Source: an uncultured virus (IMG/VR IMGVR_UViG_3300025402_000005) (lineage: Duplodnaviria; Heunggongvirae; Uroviricota; Caudoviricetes). Taken from it: a DNA stretch of 64,000 nucleotides. The notes beneath the pieces were generated by a model. That model made no database searches. It was not told the origin of the DNA and saw only the letters and a list, made by a program, of their open reading frames with translations. Positions 12,178 to 59,847 of the stretch are shown piece by piece. Position 1 is the stretch's first letter; the number at the start of each line of letters is the position of its first letter. Where the stretch lies: the IMG/VR virus record IMGVR_UViG_3300025402_000005; one strand, written 5' to 3'. The translations under genes were made by a program, and so were the position numbers.

Positions 12178-12341
12178 AGCGTAAGGAGCAACAGGAGCCG
12201 ATTCCTGAAAAAGTAAAAATCCCTTCTATCCCTATTGGTATTGTGGTAGATGGTCAGGTAGTTGAGGTGTTCTATGTTAGTACTCCCCGCCTAGCTGCTT
12301 TGTTCTTGAGTAATCCAACCTTTACTGAGGTAGTTAAGTAA
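12174..12341 (+). CDS. 55-aa hypothetical protein (not in ORF track)
   Basis: ATGA and TAATG overlaps at both ends; MKRKEQ...GIVVDGQVVEV...AALFLSNPTF. Confidence 0.6.
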   Translation: MKRKEQQEPIPEKVKIPSIPIGIVVDGQVVEVFYVSTPRLAALFLSNPTFTEVVK

Positions 12342-13318
12342 TGTCTATTTACATAGCTATACCTAGCATGTACGACAATCAGCTTCCCTACACAGTAGAG
12401 GAGGCTTTGAAGTTTGCGGATCACCCAGAAGACCTTTCTATATCCGTAGTCTTTATGGATGTAACTGACGAGCGACTAGACCACGATAAGTTCTTTTCTG
12501 AAAAGGTAGAGCCCCTCACCTCTCAGAAGCAGGTAAAGGTCAAGCGCTTTAAAGTCGGAGAGTACGAGCCTAGCGTTGGCTTTGGGCGTAATGAAGCACT
12601 CTCTCTGTATAACGATGAAGACTATGTTCTACAGATAGATTCACACACGAAGTTTGAAAAGCACTGGGACACAATCTTGATCAAGATGTACACAGAGGCT
12701 TTACAAGAAACCAAAAACGAGTTGACCATCTTAACTACGTACCTACCTGCATACGAGCATGATGATGCTGACTCTCGCGGTTACTTTGGCAGACACCGCC
12801 TAGCTAAATACCCATTCTTTATGTTTAACTTCAGGTGGGCGGGTAACTTACCTAGCTGGCACGATCTAGATCTAGTTCACCACAAGGTGACTAGAGAAGA
12901 ACTTTATGTTCCTTGTGTTAAGTTCAATGCTCAATTTGCTTTCTCAACCAAAGTTTTCTACGAGTATTCAGGTTTACCTAAGTCAACCGTTTTCTGGGAA
13001 GAAGAGTTACTTCAAACCATGAACTTGTTAGGAGAAGGTTTCTCTTTGGTATTCCCTAATCAGGTAATGCCGCTAGCTCATCTATTTCATTCTGAAGTTA
13101 ATAATGATGTGCGGTCTTACAGCTTTAGAGTGAGCGGGGCTAACCCTAAAGGGCTAACAGCGGATGAATACCATAATGAGATCCGCGATTCATACTTTGC
13201 TTTTGTAAATGACCCAGAGAATAAAAGTAAGGTTGAGCGATTCTTTAAGTACACCCGCGTGCATCCAACCTTTGGTCCTTACTTAGAAGGCTATATCCCA
13301 GCCGACTATAACCGTTGA
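12341..13318 (+). CDS. Polypeptide GlcNAc-transferase-like glycosyltransferase (GT60/Gnt1 type)
   Basis: SIYIAIPSMYD, GFGRN...LYNDEDYVLQIDSHTKFEKHWD, F.EE and HLFH motifs. Confidence 0.75.
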   Translation: MSIYIAIPSMYDNQLPYTVEEALKFADHPEDLSISVVFMDVTDERLDHDKFFSEKVEPLTSQKQVKVKRFKVGEYEPSVGFGRNEALSLYNDEDYVLQIDSHTKFEKHWDTILIKMYTEALQETKNELTILTTYLPAYEHDDADSRGYFGRHRLAKYPFFMFNFRWAGNLPSWHDLDLVHHKVTREELYVPCVKFNAQFAFSTKVFYEYSGLPKSTVFWEEELLQTMNLLGEGFSLVFPNQVMPLAHLFHSEVNNDVRSYSFRVSGANPKGLTADEYHNEIRDSYFAFVNDPENKSKVERFFKYTRVHPTFGPYLEGYIPADYNR

Positions 13319-13377
13319 TACTGACAAAACAGGTCTCTTTGTAGATACTATATAGATATCTATTTAAGGGGCCTGAA

Positions 13378-13818
13378 GTGACTGAAGCTCATAAAGACCG
13401 ACTTAATCTAAATCTGGTTGTATCTACGCCAGAGCACGAACCAAGAGAAGACGATCCTCACTACCATCTATTTAACAGCGCCAAGACTCGCCTCAAGAAG
13501 TTAGGGCTATGGAAGTGCGTCATTAATGATGAACTCTGCTCTGGAACCCCAGAGCTTCACCACTCCCACATTGAGTTCTCTCAGGTCAATAACATGGATC
13601 CAAAGAAAGTGGAACAGGCGTTCGGTGCCCACTTTGATAGTGATGAGGACTTTCAGGTGTGGATTGAAAGCCCAGGAAATCTAGAAGTTCTTTGCACCTC
13701 ACACCATAGAACCCTCTACGGGATCCACGCTATCCCTGCCCCTCTTTGGGAAACCTTTAGATATCGCAAAGCTGGAACAGAACCTGCCGCGAAACACGTT
13801 ACAAAAGAAGATAAATAA
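13378..13818 (+). CDS. HNH-like protein
   Basis: CVI...C...ELHH...NLEVLCTSHH...GIH. Confidence 0.5.
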   Translation: MTEAHKDRLNLNLVVSTPEHEPREDDPHYHLFNSAKTRLKKLGLWKCVINDELCSGTPELHHSHIEFSQVNNMDPKKVEQAFGAHFDSDEDFQVWIESPGNLEVLCTSHHRTLYGIHAIPAPLWETFRYRKAGTEPAAKHVTKEDK

Positions 13819-48267: not shown

Positions 48268-48549
48268 ATGTCAGAAGCAACAAAAGATGACGACGTTTTA
48301 CGCGTCAAAGCCAGTTCTAACCCACAATCCGTAGCATCAGCGATCGCCCACTCCATCTATGAAACCCACACCTGTAAGGTTCGTGCGGTAGGTGCGGGTG
48401 CGGTAAATCAGGCTGTTAAAGCCATTGCCATTGCTAGTGGGTACACAGCCCCACGCGGTCTAAGACTTGCCGTGATCCCGGGCTTTACCACTATCGATAG
48501 CAGAGAGGGCGAAATCAGCGCCATTGTCCTCACAGTAATCATCATTTAG
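48268..48549 (+). CDS. spoVS: SpoVS-family protein
   Basis: LRVKASSNPQSVASAIA...RAVGAGAVNQAVKAIAIASG...IPGF. Confidence 0.9.
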   Translation: MSEATKDDDVLRVKASSNPQSVASAIAHSIYETHTCKVRAVGAGAVNQAVKAIAIASGYTAPRGLRLAVIPGFTTIDSREGEISAIVLTVIII

Positions 48550-49055: not shown

Positions 49056-49547
49056 ATGCATGAGTACACTCATCCAAAGCCAAACACAGTTACTTATAAT
49101 TCACAATTTCCACCAGAGTCAAAAACTGTTACATATCCTTTACCTAGTGTTTTCAACGACATGTTTTTCCTAGGTTTTAGTGACCAATTAACTCGGTGGA
49201 CCCCACTAGCAAACACTAAGAAACCTACTTCATTTCCCCCTTACAACTTGATCAAAGAAGATGATGATAATTTCGTGATTGAGCTGGCGGTGGCTGGTTA
49301 CACGCGAGATGATATTGATATCACCGTTGAGAAGGACGTTCTAACTGTTCAGAACACAACCGAAGCTGTAAAGTCAAAAGATACCTTTATTCATCAAGGT
49401 ATTGCAGAACGCGAGTGGAAGCAGAAATTCGTTCTAGGTGAATATATGGAAGTGGGGTCAGCCTCCCTTAAAGAAGGTCTTCTAATTATTAGGGTAGAGC
49501 GCCACATTCCAGAAGAACTAAAGCCAAAGACAATTAAAATCAAATAG
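49056..49547 (+). CDS. Small heat-shock protein Hsp20 (IbpA-like)
   Basis: FPPYNL, IELAVAG, HQGIA.R, GLL.I...IPEELKPKTIKI. Confidence 0.92.
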   Translation: MHEYTHPKPNTVTYNSQFPPESKTVTYPLPSVFNDMFFLGFSDQLTRWTPLANTKKPTSFPPYNLIKEDDDNFVIELAVAGYTRDDIDITVEKDVLTVQNTTEAVKSKDTFIHQGIAEREWKQKFVLGEYMEVGSASLKEGLLIIRVERHIPEELKPKTIKIK

Positions 49548-49562
49548 TAATTGTCGACAATT

Positions 49563-49590
49563 AGCCCCGCTGAACACGCGGGGCTTTTTT
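49563..49590 (+). terminator. Intrinsic terminator
   Basis: AGCCCCGC-TGAACAC-GCGGGGCT followed by T tract. Confidence 0.8.
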
Positions 49591-51090: not shown

Positions 51091-51624
51091 ATGGCAAATA
51101 ACCATCAAAACGTTCAAAACCTTGGCGCGGGTGGAATGTATGGAACTAACACCAACTATGGTGGTGGCGGTGTTCCAGTTGCTCGCTCTGAGCTGGACTT
51201 CTTACGTCTTGGTGTAGGTCGCGCCCCACAAGCAGAATATCCGGATGGTTATTTAGGAACAATCCGTTCACGTCGTGATGATCGTGGACGTTCCACTGGA
51301 ACATCCGACAATGTATTGAACGCACTTAAGGTTCGTATCGGTCAGCGTTCCTACCAACGTGGTGTTCACCGCGGTGAGCGCATTGATGTTCAAGATTATT
51401 ATTATCCAGAAGGATTAGAAAACTCACGTGGCATTTCCCGTCAAATGCGCGGTAAGCGTGTGGGAAGCACTATTCGTACAAAGCGTAATGTAGAAGACGC
51501 AATGGCAGCTCCAGCACCACACCTTCCTAACGATGGTAAAGCTAACATGCGTAGCACATCCCCAATGGCGCTAGACAAGCGTCGTGTAGATCAAGTCGCG
51601 CGTATGCGCCCAGCGTGGAGGTAG
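51091..51624 (+). CDS. Arg/Gly-rich hypothetical protein
   Basis: AEYPDGYLGTIRSRRDDR, RSYQRGVHRGERID; leaderless TACCAT-N6-ATG start. Confidence 0.65.
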   Translation: MANNHQNVQNLGAGGMYGTNTNYGGGGVPVARSELDFLRLGVGRAPQAEYPDGYLGTIRSRRDDRGRSTGTSDNVLNALKVRIGQRSYQRGVHRGERIDVQDYYYPEGLENSRGISRQMRGKRVGSTIRTKRNVEDAMAAPAPHLPNDGKANMRSTSPMALDKRRVDQVARMRPAWR

Positions 51625-51626
51625 AG

Positions 51627-51953
51627 ATGGCAATATATCGTAAAGGTGAAGGTCAGTGGACTCCAGAAAAGCAAGCTGGTTTGATCGAGCACGCTAAGCA
51701 ACAAGGTGAAGCCAAATACCGCAGAGAAGGCATGAAGAATTACGATACCCCACCTAGAGAGTATCAAAAGGATTTACAAGAATCTAGAGGTTGGGCGATC
51801 GGCGTTAACCCACACATTAAAGCATCTAACGTAACTGGCCCAGTATCTGGCGCCGGTATTGCTAAAGGAAAAGCTGCTCGCGCAGAGTGGGATCCAGTCA
51901 TGGTTGAACGCCAGAACGAAAACATGGCAGCTAATCCTGATATGAAGGTCTGA
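51627..51953 (+). CDS. Hypothetical protein
   Basis: GGAGG RBS before ATG 51627 (MAIYRKG...). Confidence 0.55.
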   Translation: MAIYRKGEGQWTPEKQAGLIEHAKQQGEAKYRREGMKNYDTPPREYQKDLQESRGWAIGVNPHIKASNVTGPVSGAGIAKGKAARAEWDPVMVERQNENMAANPDMKV

Positions 51954-51954
51954 T

Positions 51955-52314
51955 ATGACACAGTTTGCTGACGGAGTTTATAACCGTCGCCCTTGGGTAG
52001 CTCCACCAGAGGCGGCAATGCCTCCACAAGAGTTTATTGGGCCTTTCGCGTCTAACCAAGAGCGTCTACTTAGTCAGTCGTTAGCTTCTTGGAAACTAGC
52101 TCGCGGTGAGGCTCAGACTTATGTCCGTCCTCCACTTCCACAGATCCAACTATTTCCACCAAAATATGGTTATACTGAATACGAACTAAGCATTGAAGAC
52201 ATCGCGCACTTACCAAGCCGTACAGCTACCGCACAGCGCGTAGAGTCCGACTTCAGTCAGACACCGAATACCACAGAGTCAACAAGCAGAAACGCATTAG
52301 GAGGATCAATTTAA
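51955..52314 (+). CDS. Hypothetical protein
   Basis: Tightly packed ORF, Pro-rich. Confidence 0.55.
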   Translation: MTQFADGVYNRRPWVAPPEAAMPPQEFIGPFASNQERLLSQSLASWKLARGEAQTYVRPPLPQIQLFPPKYGYTEYELSIEDIAHLPSRTATAQRVESDFSQTPNTTESTSRNALGGSI

Positions 52315-52484: not shown

Positions 52485-52718
52485 ATGTCTAAAGATCCAG
52501 GTTTATACACAGATAGCACTGGAGACGGTATGGCGGGTGCTGAAGACGTCAGCCTAGAGACCCAAAATGCCCTTCGCACTAAATATAATGGAGATAATTC
52601 CTGTACTAAGTGCGGAACGGTCATAGACCCAGTACAATCATTACTTAATCAAAAGGTTTGCCCATCCTGCTCTAGGAAGGCGCAAATAACTAGAGTGAAG
52701 GGTAGGATGTCACAATGA
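52485..52718 (+). CDS. Zinc-finger small protein
   Basis: CTKCG...CPSC. Confidence 0.6.
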   Translation: MSKDPGLYTDSTGDGMAGAEDVSLETQNALRTKYNGDNSCTKCGTVIDPVQSLLNQKVCPSCSRKAQITRVKGRMSQ

Positions 52719-52924
52719 CAGTCCGCAAAGTACGTTCAGATAACGCTGAACTTCTAGAAGGCGCCACAGACGGCAAGTACCGCAAGCGCCGTCCAAATAC
52801 AACTGTTGCACCAGCAATGGGCGACGAGCTTATGGTGAAGAATCGTTCAGACTTACATCCTTATTGGAACTATGGCTTTGTTAATTCAGAAGAGCCATCT
52901 AAAGTGAATCCAGCAGGTAACTAA
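52715..52924 (+). CDS. Hypothetical protein
   Basis: ATGA overlap; EGATDGKYRKRRP. Confidence 0.55.
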   Translation: MTVRKVRSDNAELLEGATDGKYRKRRPNTTVAPAMGDELMVKNRSDLHPYWNYGFVNSEEPSKVNPAGN

Positions 52925-52925
52925 C

Positions 52926-53111
52926 ATGGCAGAAGATCGCGCACACGATCCAAAGAGAGTTCCTTTAAGAGCAGGCGTCCCTAATTACAACCCTCGTACT
53001 TGGAGTTCTATGGGGTATCGTGCGGATGACCCAGAGCACTCACCAAACCCAACTGGTGCTGGTTCTAGAGGAACAACAAGTGTTGTTGGCGTGACCCCGG
53101 AGGATAATTAA
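52926..53111 (+). CDS. Leader-array mini-protein 1 (MAEDRAHDPKRVP + unique cargo)
   Basis: Shares 13-aa N-terminus with the next two ORFs. Confidence 0.7.
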   Translation: MAEDRAHDPKRVPLRAGVPNYNPRTWSSMGYRADDPEHSPNPTGAGSRGTTSVVGVTPEDN

Positions 53112-53376
53112 CATGGCTAAAGATAGAGCTAACGACCCACGTAGAGTTCCAAGTATTCCTTCTGGGGTTACAGGAAAATACACATTTATGGAACTTCCTG
53201 AAGACCAACACACTACTGCATACATTCCGCGCAGAACAGATGCGTATGCTTCAGGACCTAGAACTGGCGTAGAAGCCGCACTTTCTGGTAAGGGCAAGGC
53301 TGGAAACATGGGCAAACTTTTGGGAGAAGTAAAAGAAGCGTTTAAGCCTAATGAGGATAATTAACATGGCTAAAGA
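53100..53376 (+). repeat. 24-bp direct repeat GAGGATAATTAACATGGCTAAAGA x2
   Basis: Exact copies at 53100-53123 and 53353-53376; degenerate third copy around 52914-52936. Confidence 0.9.
53113..53364 (+). CDS. Leader-array mini-protein 2 (MAKDRANDPRRVP + unique cargo)
   Basis: GAGG RBS within repeated junction. Confidence 0.7.
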   Translation: MAKDRANDPRRVPSIPSGVTGKYTFMELPEDQHTTAYIPRRTDAYASGPRTGVEAALSGKGKAGNMGKLLGEVKEAFKPNEDN

Positions 53377-53620
53377 CCGCGCAAGAGATCCACGCAGAGT
53401 ACCTTCACTAGGCATTTCAGAACCACTTAGCCACGTCAAAGCTGTACAACCAACAGAGCCTTGGTCACCTAAAGGAGAATCTACTTGGGCTGGAGACGGC
53501 AAAGTTTCTAATGATTTCCACGAGGAAGATTACGGCATGAAGAAGTTTTCTGGCGAGCTTTCAACCCCAGAATCTAGAGCTGCTGACATCGCTAAACATG
53601 AAGCGGAGCGTCCTAAATAA
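53366..53620 (+). CDS. Leader-array mini-protein 3 (MAKDRARDPRRVP + unique cargo)
   Basis: Start corrected to ATG 53366 by homology of junction and leader. Confidence 0.7.
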   Translation: MAKDRARDPRRVPSLGISEPLSHVKAVQPTEPWSPKGESTWAGDGKVSNDFHEEDYGMKKFSGELSTPESRAADIAKHEAERPK

Positions 53621-53820
53621 TGGCTGACGGTAAGATCAAGTTTAATAAAGAGAACCCAGAGCACGTCAAAGCTATCAAAGGCGGGGACGTAAAGATCCAT
53701 GCTGGCGGATACTTTTCTAAGTCCCCTAAGGGTGGACTAAAGACCCCAGTAAGCCCAAAGGCTAAGCTTTCTGCACCTAAATCCGCAAAGATGAAGGCAC
53801 CGTCGACTAAAAACAAATAG
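53620..53820 (+). CDS. Lys-rich small protein
   Basis: TAATG coupling; very basic. Confidence 0.55.
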   Translation: MADGKIKFNKENPEHVKAIKGGDVKIHAGGYFSKSPKGGLKTPVSPKAKLSAPKSAKMKAPSTKNK

Positions 53821-53855: not shown

Positions 53856-54410
53856 TTGTCAGATACAGATCTAGAAAATGAGTACATCCTTTTATTGGTG
53901 TGCAAAACCTGCAAGTCCATCCAAGAGATCCCGTATGTAAAGACGGGTAAATACCTTGGAGAAGGTAAGTACGACCAGACTGACAATCCTTTTCTAGCCG
54001 AAGTCAATGCTCCGCATGAGCGTAAGGGCTGTTACGGTGTTCTTACTGACGTTAACTGGGTTTACTGGATGACTCCGAAGGTTAAAGAGTCGATCGTAGC
54101 TCAAATCAAGGATCAACTAACTTCCGATAGCCCTCTAACCTCTGGGCTAGACGTGTTTGGAACTAACTTTTACGACCTCAAGGACACCTTCAGCGCGGAC
54201 GCTATGTCCTGTTGGAAGGTGCATAACAGCCCCAAAGGTCAATGCTCGGACTACAAGACTGACCGTAAGAAGCTCGATGCTGGCACTAAGCAAGATCGTT
54301 CAGACGCGGGTTTAGCTCAATCCACCATTAAAGTTTACCTTTGCGACTTCTGTCCCGTAAAAATGTACAACCAGCAGAAGGCGTACAAGGAAAAAGGACT
54401 TTACGACTAA
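53856..54410 (+). CDS. Cys-rich (zinc-binding) hypothetical protein
   Basis: AGGAG RBS + TTG; CKTC, C...H...C, CDFC. Confidence 0.6.
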   Translation: MSDTDLENEYILLLVCKTCKSIQEIPYVKTGKYLGEGKYDQTDNPFLAEVNAPHERKGCYGVLTDVNWVYWMTPKVKESIVAQIKDQLTSDSPLTSGLDVFGTNFYDLKDTFSADAMSCWKVHNSPKGQCSDYKTDRKKLDAGTKQDRSDAGLAQSTIKVYLCDFCPVKMYNQQKAYKEKGLYD

Positions 54411-55795: not shown

Positions 55796-56257
55796 GTGAC
55801 AATAGTTATGTTTATCGACGGCGTTTTGCGCAGTCACACGGGAACCCCGATATACCAAGGTCTTGCCCTTTATCGCCTATTTAATGAAGGCAATAAGGTA
55901 ATGCTACTTGGTGAACACAAGGGCAAAGACGACATCTGGCTTCGTCAACACAAAATTAATAAGATTGATGACCTAATTGACCACACTATTCCAGGTATGA
56001 CCGATTTCCCAGAATGGCGTCAGGTAGAGTATCTTCGCGGTAATGGTGCTGTGGACTTAGTAGTTACAAGTGACCCTAAGGTTGCAAAAAAGTTATTGGA
56101 GGTTGGAATTACCACTATGGTATTTATGCAACCTGCCTATGTTAAAGAAGAGTTTCGTCCTGATAGCAGGATTGGAACTAAGACATGGAAAGACATCGAG
56201 GATGAGATCACCCGTCAACTTGAAGCCATTATTGAGGATCCAAGACTAAGCCGATGA
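55796..56257 (+). CDS. HAD-superfamily-like protein (degenerate motif I)
   Basis: IVMFIDGVLR, WLRQH, LLEVGITTM. Confidence 0.5.
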   Translation: MTIVMFIDGVLRSHTGTPIYQGLALYRLFNEGNKVMLLGEHKGKDDIWLRQHKINKIDDLIDHTIPGMTDFPEWRQVEYLRGNGAVDLVVTSDPKVAKKLLEVGITTMVFMQPAYVKEEFRPDSRIGTKTWKDIEDEITRQLEAIIEDPRLSR

Positions 56258-57735
56258 CTCGCCTAATTTACTTGGGCGCAGAGGTACCTTCTAACCGCAC
56301 CCTACTCGAAACCACATCTGCTAACTACGTTGGCGTGAGCTATTGGCGTTTAACCAAGCGGGGACTGCCTAAGAAGAGCAGTTACCTCCTAGAGAACTAC
56401 TTTAACCCTGATTTCCTAATCCATGTCCATCCCGGGATCCCCAAGGACACCACACTAGATCGTGTAGAACTGGAGACCTTTGCGGCCGAGTACGAGGGTT
56501 TTATAGCCGACAATATCGATCGACTTGAGACCTTTAATGACATCAACGCCGAATGGATAGACCCAGCTTTCGTTAAGGAGCAGCGTAATACTGTTTGGTC
56601 AGAGGTACCACCTGCCAAGTTTCAGCCTGTCTGGAGCCCTACAGAGGGTCTAAAAGCTTTGACTGACATGGCGGGTACCTTCTTAGATATCGCCATTCCT
56701 GGGGGTGCTTTAGAGGAGAATCCACAGCTTTCTGTCGTCATGCGTACACACATTAGGACTGGAACTAGGTTCCATATCCTAGGTAGCGCGAGACCGGATA
56801 GCCTACGACAACTAGCCGTTGAGACCATCAGCACACAGGCTTGGCTATCCCCTATGTTGCATGGTGAGACTATTGTATGGGATGGCACTAAACTAAACCG
56901 TTATCCCAAGAGGATGAAAGATCAAGCTCGATCACGATACCGTCACATCTATCAGAAGGCCGGTATCGATGCTGATAAGATTTTTGAAGATGACCCACAA
57001 GAAGTATGTCGTCTAGCCGTATGGTCATATACACAGTTTGAAACGAGGATGAACGCCATGAACCCCAACTCAGATGACGAACTGTTATATGATAACAGCG
57101 GTGAAACAGATGTAGATATAAGTGCGGAAAACACCCCTTCCGTATCTGATAATAAGGGTATTCAACCACGGAAACTTGAAGCCCGAAATCCTGCCGAAAT
57201 GGGGCATTTACCGGTCTTTGGAGTGCAGTATAAAGAGGTTGTAGAGCAGGATTCAGAGGGTCGGGACATCATTAAAGAAGTCCCTGTTTTACAGTCCCAG
57301 TCGGTCAGTCTAAGAGTTTGCGATACGTGCTTTGTTGCTGACAAGTGCCCTGCTTTTAAGCCTCAGACAGCTTGCGCATTTAACCTCCCAGTAGAGGTAA
57401 AGACCACCGATCAACTCAAGGCACTGCTTAATGCAATCATCGAAATGCAGGGTCAACGCATTGCTTTTATGCGTTTTGCTGAAGAAATGAGCGGTGGATA
57501 CGCAGATCCTAACCTTTCCCAAGAGATCGATCGCCTCTATAAAATCGTTTCTGAGGTCAATAAATTGGGAGAATCTAAAGACTATATTAGGATTACTGCT
57601 GAGCGTTCTAGCTCTGCTGGAGTGCTGTCTTCCATCTTCGGAGACCGTGCTCAAGCCCTCAGAGAAATGCCTAACGGGGGCATAAATGAGGAGCAGACAA
57701 CCAAGATTATTAGGCAATCTTTAGAAGATAAATAA
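56254..57735 (+). CDS. Two-domain protein: TGT/DpdA-like N-terminal domain plus Cys-rich helical C-terminal domain
   Basis: RFHILG....L......ISTQAWL resembles the H.LG...S.DS..W end of transglycosylase-like barrels; CDTC....KCP.F.....C. Confidence 0.4.
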   Translation: MTRLIYLGAEVPSNRTLLETTSANYVGVSYWRLTKRGLPKKSSYLLENYFNPDFLIHVHPGIPKDTTLDRVELETFAAEYEGFIADNIDRLETFNDINAEWIDPAFVKEQRNTVWSEVPPAKFQPVWSPTEGLKALTDMAGTFLDIAIPGGALEENPQLSVVMRTHIRTGTRFHILGSARPDSLRQLAVETISTQAWLSPMLHGETIVWDGTKLNRYPKRMKDQARSRYRHIYQKAGIDADKIFEDDPQEVCRLAVWSYTQFETRMNAMNPNSDDELLYDNSGETDVDISAENTPSVSDNKGIQPRKLEARNPAEMGHLPVFGVQYKEVVEQDSEGRDIIKEVPVLQSQSVSLRVCDTCFVADKCPAFKPQTACAFNLPVEVKTTDQLKALLNAIIEMQGQRIAFMRFAEEMSGGYADPNLSQEIDRLYKIVSEVNKLGESKDYIRITAERSSSAGVLSSIFGDRAQALREMPNGGINEEQTTKIIRQSLEDK

Positions 57736-57813: not shown

Positions 57814-59847
57814 ATGGCATTGTCGTTTAAGCTAACCGAGGATTTCGTGGCGGGATACAGAGGTAAAAAGGTGCCTTGGGGATACCAAGATGCCGCAGGT
57901 AATTCTGTCGGTGAGATCACCTTCCTCCGTACTTACTCCCGTATCAAGGAGGATGGAACCAAGGAGACATGGACAGATGTCTGTGAGCGAGTAATCAACG
58001 GTATGTATTCCCTTCAGAAGGATCACGCTAAGCTGAACCGCTTGCCTTGGTCGGACTCCAAGGCCGCAGCTTCCGCTAAAGAGGCGTTCGATCGTCTATG
58101 GAACTTGAAGTGGACTCCACCAGGACGAGGACTTTGGGTCATGGGAACACCTATTGTTAATGACCAGCGCAACTCTGCAGCTTTGCAGAACTGTGCCTTT
58201 GTATCTACGGATTCTATGACCAAGCTTAACCCAGCTAAGCCGTTTGCCTTCCTAATGGAAGCTTCTATGCTGGGAGTCGGAGTCGGGTTTGACGACAAGG
58301 GCGCAGATAAAGACTTTACTATTTATGCCCCCGAACAAGGAGATACATATGTCATCCCAGATACCCGCGAAGGTTGGGTCGAGTCATTTGCCGCCCTCCT
58401 CAATAGCTACCTTAAGCCAGATACGAAGAGCCCAGTCTTTGATTACACCCAGATCCGCCCAGCGGGAACTACTATCAAAACCTTCGGAGGAACTGCAGCT
58501 GGACACGAGCCACTAGAAAAGCTCCATAACCACATTCGTCGTATATTTGACGGTCGTGGGGGGGAGAAGCTTACCCGTGTAGACCTAGCCGACATTGGCA
58601 ATCTGATCGGAGTTTGTGTTGTAAGCGGAAACGTCCGCCGTTCAGCTGAGTTACTCATGGGTCGTATCGATGACGATACTTTCTTGAACTTGAAGAACCC
58701 TGAGAAGTTTCCTGAGCGTAACTCCTATGACCCTGCCAACCCAGGCTGGGCATGGATGTCTAACAACTCTGTCGAGGTATCTGTTGGTCAAGATCTCTCA
58801 CGCATTGTAGATGGTATCTCACGTAACGGAGAACCCGGCGTAATTTGGATGGATGTTACACGCAAGTACGGTCGTCTTAAGGATGGAATAAACAATAAAG
58901 ACTGGAGAGCTATGGGCTACAACCCATGCGCAGAGCAGTCACTAGAGTCCTTCGAGTGCTGTACTTTGGTGGAGACTTACCTTAATCGTCATGAGGATCT
59001 AGAGGACTTCAAGCGCACACTAAAGTTTGCTTATCTCTATGCCAAGACTGTAACTCTTCTTCCTACCCATTGGGAGGAGACCAACGCGATCATGCAACGC
59101 AATCGCCGTATTGGAACTTCTGTCTCTGGTGTAGCTAACTTCTCAGATAACAAGGGCTTGCCTACTCTACGTAAGTGGCTCGATGCTGGGTACACCGTTG
59201 TTAAGGACTACGACAAGGGCTACTCAGAATGGCTAGGTATCCGTGAATCTATCAAGATGACAACTGTTAAGCCTTCCGGCACAGTCTCTATTCTTGCTGG
59301 TGAGTCTCCCGGGGTTCACTGGTCAGTAGGCGGTAAGTACTTCCTACGCGCGATCCGTTTCCGTAATGAAGACCCTATGCTCCCTCTCTTTAAGATGGCA
59401 CAATACACAGTTGAACCAGCTAGCGAGGATCCAAGCGGAACTTCTGTTGTGTTCTTCCCTGTGAAGTCTGATGCTAAGCGTTCAGAGAAGGAAGTCTCTA
59501 TCTATGAGAAGATCCACCTTGCCGCTACAGCTCAGTACGAATGGTCAGATAACTCTGTATCAGTAACAGTCTCTTTCGATCCTGAGACTGAGAAGGATGT
59601 TATCAAGAGCGTACTTCATATGCACGAAGGTCAACTCAAGACTGTCTCTTTCCTTCCATCAGGTAATACTATCTATCCACAGATGCCTTACACACAGATC
59701 ACAGAGGAAGATTACGAGAGTTATCGCATGAAGCTCTTCCCTATCGATCTCGTAGGTGTCTACGCGGGTATGGCAGCTGATGCTATCGGAGAGGCTTACT
59801 GCAGCACAGATGCCTGTGAAGTGAAGTTGATTAAAGACAACCAGTAA
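57814..59847 (+). CDS. nrdJ: Class II (adenosylcobalamin-dependent) ribonucleotide reductase, monomeric type
   Basis: RTYSR, PPGRGLW, LQNC, GVGVGF, GNVRRSA, NPCAEQ, VKPSGT, C-terminal CSTDAC; no beta-subunit gene nearby. Confidence 0.92.
   Translation: MALSFKLTEDFVAGYRGKKVPWGYQDAAGNSVGEITFLRTYSRIKEDGTKETWTDVCERVINGMYSLQKDHAKLNRLPWSDSKAAASAKEAFDRLWNLKWTPPGRGLWVMGTPIVNDQRNSAALQNCAFVSTDSMTKLNPAKPFAFLMEASMLGVGVGFDDKGADKDFTIYAPEQGDTYVIPDTREGWVESFAALLNSYLKPDTKSPVFDYTQIRPAGTTIKTFGGTAAGHEPLEKLHNHIRRIFDGRGGEKLTRVDLADIGNLIGVCVVSGNVRRSAELLMGRIDDDTFLNLKNPEKFPERNSYDPANPGWAWMSNNSVEVSVGQDLSRIVDGISRNGEPGVIWMDVTRKYGRLKDGINNKDWRAMGYNPCAEQSLESFECCTLVETYLNRHEDLEDFKRTLKFAYLYAKTVTLLPTHWEETNAIMQRNRRIGTSVSGVANFSDNKGLPTLRKWLDAGYTVVKDYDKGYSEWLGIRESIKMTTVKPSGTVSILAGESPGVHWSVGGKYFLRAIRFRNEDPMLPLFKMAQYTVEPASEDPSGTSVVFFPVKSDAKRSEKEVSIYEKIHLAATAQYEWSDNSVSVTVSFDPETEKDVIKSVLHMHEGQLKTVSFLPSGNTIYPQMPYTQITEEDYESYRMKLFPIDLVGVYAGMAADAIGEAYCSTDACEVKLIKDNQ

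Follow-up and report, generated by a model that had tools for sequence, protein, structure and literature searches.

What keeps a peptide of 12–13 residues constant at the N-terminus of adjacent phage proteins that have no other detectable similarity is the question raised by a small gene array in the uncultured virus record IMGVR_UViG_3300025402_000005, from which a 64-kb stretch (hereafter the window) of a freshwater-metagenome phage of myovirus-like type and roughly 96 kb was analysed. Three consecutive open reading frames (ORFs), ORF1 to ORF3, begin with this peptide, here termed the tag, and continue into dissimilar remainders, here termed cargos. Our preferred reading, to which we assign a probability of roughly 0.5, is that the tag serves as an address label docking unrelated small proteins to one common partner. 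Related loci are labelled L001 onwards, related proteins P0003 and P0027, and lake metagenome runs X8, X10, X12 and X14; G002 denotes a viral record that from about 53.2 kb onward is a nearly exact match to the window and that extends 31 kb past its end.

The three ORFs lie back to back and tightly packed on the plus strand (52926-53111, 53113-53364 and 53366-53620; 61, 83 and 84 amino acids (aa)), with the N-termini MAEDRAHDPKRVP, MAKDRANDPRRVP and MAKDRARDPRRVP and the consensus MA[EK]DRAxDP[KR]RVP, so that the common 13-residue leader noticed in an earlier examination made without database searches (the sequence-only reading) is indeed present; the start given there, 52914, lies 12 nt 5′ of the first ATG, within the first junction. 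For ORF3, the ORF listing gives an in-frame upstream ATG at 53351; the ATG at 53366 is preceded by the same GAGGA as that of ORF2. Complete divergence after the leader, likewise claimed, was confirmed by cargo-versus-cargo Smith-Waterman comparison, which detected no similarity (z = -1.18, -0.15 and +0.80 relative to 500 shuffles). A 24-bp exact repeat at 53100-53123 and 53353-53376 (0 matches in 100 shuffles) covers the ribosome-binding site (RBS), stop, start and first tag codons, and the C-termini of ORF1 and ORF2 both read EDN, as had been described; junction and tag together form a 60-nt direct repeat of three copies, the further copies being 72% and 65% identical to the first. Within the window the back-translated tag pattern has exactly three matches, all at the array, where none is expected, and a six-frame peptide scan of the 64 kb yielded no further strict copy. 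The three cargos contain no Cys and 21–29% hydrophobic residues, with net charges of -1, 0 and -4. The features of the locus are as follows.

52715..52924, plus strand: p69, a conserved gene of 69 aa that anchors the locus on its upstream side; about 72% identical in DNA to L001 and recovered by tblastn in this position on 63 distinct syntenic viral contigs
52904..52963, plus strand: junction 0, comprising the p69 3′ end, stop, ATG and tag codons (60-nt repeat copy 1, from the repeat search)
52926..53111, plus strand: cassette A (ORF1, 61 aa), tag MAEDRAHDPKRVP with a Pro/Gly/Ser-rich cargo ending in EDN
53091..53150, plus strand: junction 1 (60-nt repeat copy 2), with the GAGGA RBS, stop TAA, ATG and first tag codons; holds the 24-bp repeat
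53113..53364, plus strand: cassette B (ORF2, 83 aa), tag MAKDRANDPRRVP with a cargo near-identical in DNA to that of L001
53344..53403, plus strand: junction 2 (60-nt repeat copy 3, from the repeat search); holds the 24-bp repeat
53366..53620, plus strand: cassette C (ORF3, 84 aa), a member of the commonest tagged family
53620..53820, plus strand: Lys-rich 66-aa gene that closes the array, net charge +12
53856..54410, plus strand: conserved Cys-rich 184-aa gene, the downstream anchor; 212 IMG/VR stretches encode a relative

The last codons of p69 (..KVNPAGN, stop) make up the first junction, and many cassette products have similar C-termini (..KVNPAGN, ..TPEDN, ..KPNEDN, ..KINSGN) because these codons belong to the shared, RBS-bearing junction. 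The overlap goes further at L007:4545, L007:5299 and L010:3237, where the upstream stop overlaps the third tag codon (A ATG GCT AA = Asn-Gly-stop); there the first tag codons serve at the same time as the end of the upstream gene, so that tight coupling of translation is implied.

The tag is portable, predicted to be flexible, and maintained by selection at the level of the peptide. Across 19 distinct leaders, D4, R5, A6, D8 and R11 are invariant, an invariance partly built in since the set was found through the peptide; the synonymous variation, which supplies the independent evidence, amounts to a third-position entropy of 0.95–1.89 bits, with both CGN and AGR codons in use at both arginines, and no DNA conservation was found upstream of the ATG in the same leaders. 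The synonymous codon differences quoted in the sequence-only reading are correct, and its proposal that the peptide is under selection is borne out by this scatter, selection acting on the peptide and not on the DNA. Pairwise comparison of 30 members of the main tagged family gave a mean identity of 0.79 for the tag, 0.62 for the 13 residues that follow it and 0.13 for the remainder. Portability is clearest in the ‘IKAAG’ family (..IKAAG..H.IKKNKKGEVIVDH..DWHKKNG), whose members are untagged in L007 (two copies), L010 and L011 and tagged in L005, L020 and P0027, the tag appearing in the alignment as a clean insertion of 8–9 residues after the initial MA; untagged homologues are also known for two further tagged cargos. 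The occurrence of one cargo family with and without the tag agrees with the earlier suggestion of a single tag on exchangeable cargo.

Structure prediction with AlphaFold2 (AF2) places a sheet and a helix at residues 10–70 of the tagged ‘IKAAG’ form (predicted template modelling score, pTM, 0.64), with the tag as low-confidence coil; whether it precedes this folded 60-residue domain or a single helix, the tag is modelled as coil at a predicted local distance difference test score (pLDDT) of about 56–65. A full-length member of the main family is predicted as 47 residues of coil (pLDDT about 58–65) followed by one helix, and the ESM Atlas model of ORF3 (pLDDT 0.32) has as neighbours only other low-confidence, disordered proteins. 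Foldseek comparison of the folded ‘IKAAG’ cargo with the PDB returned no match at E ≤ 0.001.

Movement of a single cassette between genomes can be followed for cassette B. The ORF2 cargo (53121-53354) has 96.2% DNA identity to L001, whereas every flanking gene has 65–72%; of 75 codons compared, 69 are identical, three differ synonymously and three non-synonymously, against 29 identical, 21 synonymous and 19 non-synonymous for p69. The near-identical block begins within the tag and ends at the start of the 24-bp junction repeat. Repeats flank the cassette in both genomes: in the window the 24-bp exact repeat, and in L001 a repeat of the p69 3′ end and ATG (31 nt, 94% identity, 288 bp spacing), its first 26 nt being identical by eye. 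This is the signature of a recent transfer of one cassette between diverged genomes, probably via recombination in the junction and tag, and it fits the recombination-shuffled cassettes that had been envisaged from the window. Cassette A has an orthologue, P0003, and is missing from L001–L003, L006 and contigs of other populations.

The locus as a whole is hyperplastic, with variable occupancy. Inspection of eight loci by eye showed that different genes lie between p69 and the Cys-rich gene.

Window: three tagged genes
L001: one tagged gene (ORF2 type, altered tag)
L003: one tagged gene (ORF2 type, altered tag)
L006: two tagged genes and one related untagged gene
L008: at least one tagged gene (contig ends)
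L009: one tagged gene
L017: two tagged genes and one with a variant motif
L021: one tagged gene

A wider survey covered the best 80 of the 212 IMG/VR relatives of the Cys-rich gene. With the narrow motif, 24 of the 72 loci holding both anchors had one or two tagged genes; on reading the apparently empty loci, variant forms were seen (..RRENDSKR.., ..RRERDTNRV.., ..RREKDETRV..), from which a wide motif, [D/R/K]R[A/E/D/S]x[D/N]xxR within the first 22 residues, was defined. After loci identical over the region had been dropped, 63 distinct loci remained, with an anchor-to-anchor gap of 187–2936 bp. The wide motif occurs in 60 of 167 gap genes; outside the gap, these loci have it in 14 of 623 ORFs (odds ratio 24, p = 9e-32). 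Of the loci, 20 have no such gene, 27 have one, 15 have two and one has three, figures that are indicative, the motif being post hoc and the ORFs simple longest-ORF calls. The variation in copy number and cargo at the syntenic locus that the sequence-only reading had anticipated is therefore present, with 0–3 motif genes per distinct locus. In four lake metagenome runs, co-occurring populations carry other arrangements: in X10 and X12, p69 is followed directly by an ORF3-type start; X8 holds the L001-type form; and in X10, X12 and X14 a relative (contig depth 33–112) carries the leader ..DRARDDRRSVGS.. directly after p69 with a different cargo (corresponding to 52868-53129 of the window), the window arrangement having a contig depth of about 2–6 in the same runs, where depth is not a measure of abundance.

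Beyond the window, a profile search of 1.84 billion representative proteins returned 30 at E ≤ 1e-3, all of 56–143 aa and all with the motif N-terminal; no long protein with the tag was among them. The commonest family, which includes ORF3, is laid out as the tag, SLGISxPISHV, a hypervariable middle containing K.DAF..TD..R and usually a C-terminal VVKI.S, and 29 of its 30 members are net positive (mean +5.8); cassette C has the tag, SLGISxPISHV and a K.DAF..TD..R-like stretch, and lacks the usual VVKI.S. The back-translated pattern was found on 13 stretches in IMG/VR viral contigs, on which the tag precedes at least eight other cargo types; some of these genes lie at other sites of the same genome type, adjoining methyltransferase and ArdC-like genes or a transglycosylase and endolysin. 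A pattern scan of metagenomes gave 104 stretches, with three loci confirmed by tblastn, a filter that short leaders rarely pass. No match was found in 50,697 records of cultured phages (blastn of 5 kb; tblastn of ORF3), nor do the tagged proteins match PHROGs, Pfam, NCBIfam or PDB sequences. The sole pattern match in 185,579 species genomes lies within a long ORF of a contig of high GC (guanine plus cytosine) content, is not N-terminal and was judged to be a chance match. Searches of the literature for the tag strings found two unrelated papers only, and a concept search found no such phage tag.

At a second hyperplastic site, DUF6321 proteins and other small Lys-rich proteins stand among the tagged genes (L005:2216-2518, with E = 3e-20, and L007:4769-5032), and L007 also holds two copies, spaced about 750 bp, of a two-gene unit made up of an untagged ‘IKAAG’ gene and a tagged gene. 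Two ORFs contain tag-like stretches in their interior, L009:2572-2727 (..LAEDRATDMR.., residue 29) and L009:3166-3621 (..DRSTDTHRVV.., residue 16); translation may in fact begin further downstream at alternative start codons, or else the motif can act internally.

A cassette comprises the last codons of the preceding gene with their RBS, a stop, an ATG with 12–13 tag codons, and a cargo. The tag, with the core D-R-A-x-D-P-x-R-V and, in the wider lineage, [D/R/K]-R-[A/E/D/S]-x-[D/N]-x-x-R, behaves as a charged, flexible short linear motif at or near the N-terminus of mostly basic, disordered small proteins. Homologous recombination would insert, delete and swap cassettes at the junction and tag, since this is the only stretch that the cassettes have in common. 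Candidate partners of an address label would be the prohead or virion, the 69-aa protein that is always its neighbour (in the role of adaptor) or a host hub; co-folding of the scaffold-like protein (263 aa, 20 alignment rows), the capsid protein (356 aa, 15 rows) and residues 1–40 of ORF3 (30 rows) scored 0.00, the mark being 0.32, which weighs neither for nor against such an interface.

Several observations weigh against an address label. The docking role is deduced from a conservation pattern; the 19 leaders on which that pattern partly depends were ascertained via the peptide motif, and the wide motif was devised after the loci had been seen and applied to longest-ORF calls. The 20 of 63 distinct loci without a wide-motif gene belong here, as does the Streptomyces phage LuckySocke, a relative by its capsid protein, whose genome gave 0 profile matches to the tag at E ≤ 10. 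In several relatives 2–13 residues precede the motif (MSAPDKAKD.., MSTVPDRAKD..), so a free N-terminus is not strictly required; and the ORF2 tag is altered in L001-type relatives (MSAPDKAKDPRRTP), so the exact tag sequence is not indispensable for that cargo.

Genes for tail fibres, sheath, tube and baseplate occupy 3–31 kb of the window, which also encodes a DnaB-like helicase, primase, PolA-type polymerase, UvsX-like recombinase and resolvases. A SpoVS homologue (48268-48549, Pfam E = 1e-25) and Hsp20 (49056-49547) stand just upstream of the array operon, a replication and nucleotide-metabolism operon that runs from an exonuclease (phrog_284) through small family-less genes to a DpdA-like gene (phrog_887) and a class II ribonucleotide reductase, with the array placed between p69 and the Cys-rich gene; terminator-like hairpins at 49563 and 59861 enclose the exonuclease-to-reductase block, array included. 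The DpdA-like gene is long (493 aa, 56254-57735) and adjoins the B12-type reductase (57814-59847). The 31 kb past the window, known from G002, holds no further tagged gene and contains an ArdC-like gene, methyltransferases, endonucleases, a transglycosylase, and terminase, portal, scaffold and capsid genes, the head module being ordered as portal, a 263-aa coiled-coil scaffold-like protein and an N4-gp56-type major capsid protein. The ArdC-like anti-restriction gene and two DNA methyltransferases lying beyond the window (L024:4483-5433 and 12272-13721) suggest, together with the DpdA-like gene, that the phage modifies its DNA and is in conflict with restriction by the host. With their counterparts in Streptomyces phages LuckySocke, Alone3 and BRock the capsid protein shares 72% identity; at the corresponding genes the LuckySocke annotation lists a portal, a scaffolding protein and a major capsid protein, and a protease is absent there. 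The lineage is abundant in metagenomes, with 1314 relatives of the scaffold and 5232 of the capsid protein in the protein collection, and all 24 sequencing runs containing the stretch are freshwater metagenomes, none of them listed as an RNA run.

The genes around the array have features of their own. The N-terminus of the Lys-rich 66-aa protein (KFNKENPEHVKAIK; K[FI][ND]K.NPEHV) has a PxxHVK motif in common with cassette C and the main tagged family, and the protein aligns with the ORF3 cargo at a Smith-Waterman z of 3.7; its orthologues have 93–96 aa with Ala/Pro/Lys-rich tails of repeated AKK and PKK (L001:10283-10573; L006:10766-11047), tails that we take to resemble histone-H1-like DNA-binding tails. 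The Cys-rich 184-aa protein, in which the motifs CKTCK ... C ... CSDYK ... CDFCPVK occur, may bind zinc; Pfam, PHROGs and NCBIfam gave no match for it. Between the exonuclease and the array (51091-52314) lie conserved proteins of low complexity that belong to no family (177, 112 and 119 aa); they are Gly/Arg-rich and 58–85% identical in relatives; the cargo of the L013 tagged protein appears faintly like the 112-aa protein by eye, a likeness for which BLAST gave no support.

The most specific form of addressing would be a T4-type capsid targeting signal, by which small basic proteins are loaded into the prohead and injected with the DNA, for instance for counter-defence, and which we consider possible though unlikely. 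According to the excerpts available of PMC9026906 and PMC3012670, the first 10 residues of T4 IPIII are enough for entry into the prohead core during loading, and T-even internal proteins have only the capsid targeting sequence in common, an N-terminus of roughly 10 residues being the sole common part of diverse small basic proteins. The T4 sequence, as those excerpts describe it for IPI, IPII, IPIII and Alt, is the closest known model: a short N-terminus (about 10 residues in T4, 12–13 here) is carried by diverse small proteins that vary between relatives, in a myovirus with modified DNA in T4 and, to judge from its genes, here, and unrelated small proteins sharing an N-terminal tag are what is found here. 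The array is moreover closed by the Lys-rich (+12) gene, and a defence conflict is plausible in a myovirus with DpdA-like, methyltransferase and ArdC-like genes. On cargo charge the evidence divides, the main family being positive in 29 of 30 members and the three window cargos (-1, 0, -4) not being markedly basic. Against this reading, the L/I-x-E motif described in the excerpted text of PMC9026906 is absent from the tag and following residues of the three ORFs, and the tagged proteins have no PHROG match. A gp21-like prohead protease was not detected by PHROGs or Pfam in the window and the 31 kb of G002, about 3 kb of the genome being unseen; Peptidase_S78 was absent from four of four related records, which are fragments, and the Peptidase_S77 search lacked a working positive control. 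The capsid is of N4-gp56 type, and the array lies with exonuclease, DpdA and ribonucleotide reductase genes between the terminator-like sites and not with the late genes. The head-packaging destination suggested in the sequence-only reading finds no support in these results. Without the cleavage site, the tag is not a member of the T4 capsid targeting sequence family, although it may work in a similar way. A bolder version of the address label, which we regard as doubtful, is a protease-independent capsid or injection code, in which the insertion of roughly 9 residues would load any small protein that gains it into the head, perhaps via the 69-aa adaptor, for delivery with the DNA, and the junction and tag would be the recombination site at which counter-defence cargos are traded.

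Rather improbable, in our estimate, is that no addressing takes place, the N-terminal peptide being active in itself (for example by blocking one target) or simply the most constrained part of fast-evolving disordered paralogues. Such paralogy would accommodate the further conserved motifs around the hypervariable middle of the commonest family (SLGISxPISHV, K.DAF..TD..R, VVKI.S), one of which is carried by the downstream Lys-rich gene, and disordered proteins lose detectable similarity fast; yet the tag occurs as a clean insertion of 8–9 residues in an otherwise tagless folded family, tagged cargos have untagged homologues, and the cargo families are mutually dissimilar.

A role in the nucleic acid is very unlikely. 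The junction and tag would then be a recombination linker or a translation-coupling and initiation region with the peptide as by-product, as the packing of RBS, stop and start within a few bases, the overlap of stop and third tag codon in L007 and L010, and the coincidence of cassette boundaries with junction and tag might suggest. This is contradicted by the free third positions, the invariant amino acids and the switches between CGN and AGR arginine codons, and the three junctions have no shared RNA fold (z = -0.93, +1.13 and +0.04), Rfam gave no family at gathering score, one chance-level microRNA match and 0 tRNAs, and no promoter-like or terminator-like sites were found at the junctions, promoter-like sites (11 found) not exceeding the 19.9 expected from shuffles. 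Cassettes flanked by repeated linkers do recall the promoter early stem-loop (PeSL) elements of T4-type hyperplastic regions, where, in the excerpts of PMC2839356, recombination between linkers inserts, deletes and replaces orphan genes; here too, the linkers are where relatives differ by insertion or deletion, as seen from the identity contrast (96% against 65–72%) and the flanking junction repeats. A PeSL as described in that excerpted text, however, consists of a non-coding early promoter together with a stem-loop terminator, whereas the linker of the present array is coding on both sides, has neither promoter nor terminator and is conserved at the peptide level.

Arrays of precursors of ribosomally synthesised and post-translationally modified peptides (RiPPs) consist of tandem genes with a constant leader and a variable remainder, as in the layout seen here; their cores are rich in modifiable residues (such as Cys, Ser or Thr) and their leaders carry a cleavage motif. 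That the ORFs encode such precursors, with a leader read by a modifying enzyme and a core released as peptide, is nevertheless highly improbable. A novel enzyme could be hidden in the two conserved neighbours (the 184-aa Cys-rich protein and one of 310 aa), which have no known family; on the other side, the leader spans only some 12 residues, the cargos, at 48–130 residues, are long as well as hydrophilic and in many cases basic, those of the three window ORFs have no Cys, neither PHROGs on 73 window ORFs nor Pfam and NCBIfam on the neighbours revealed a RiPP enzyme, recognition element or precursor family, and tagged genes at other genomic sites have different neighbours. Processing by a nearby enzyme, the other destination offered in the sequence-only reading, accordingly gains no support, and that reading as a whole is partly supported. 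Polymorphic toxins also combine a constant N-terminus with C-termini diversified by cassette recombination (PMC3482391, in excerpt); those, however, are bacterial, large and secreted, and have toxin domains and immunity genes, in contrast to phage proteins of 50–143 residues, and no toxin or immunity family was detected among the tagged proteins. That the ORFs, short and matching no known family, are not real genes is negligibly probable, given the same N-terminal peptide with synonymous changes on ORFs in many diverged contigs, their close packing on the coding strand with ribosome-binding sites, and one cargo family that folds confidently (pTM 0.64).

The tag described here is previously undescribed and unrelated to the T4 capsid targeting sequence, and belongs, with a cassette architecture of its own, to an abundant uncultured lineage. 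The cassettes are built around a recombination linker that encodes protein to either side and that peptide-level selection keeps constant. Should the tag be an address label, phages would have in it their second clear example only, after T4, of a targeting peptide that is short, portable and attached to exchangeable cargo, and this in an unrelated lineage abundant in the environment. A tag of 9–13 residues directing proteins to a site in the phage or host would, if true, be potentially useful, and as an address label it would offer a way into what a large group of orphan mini-proteins does.

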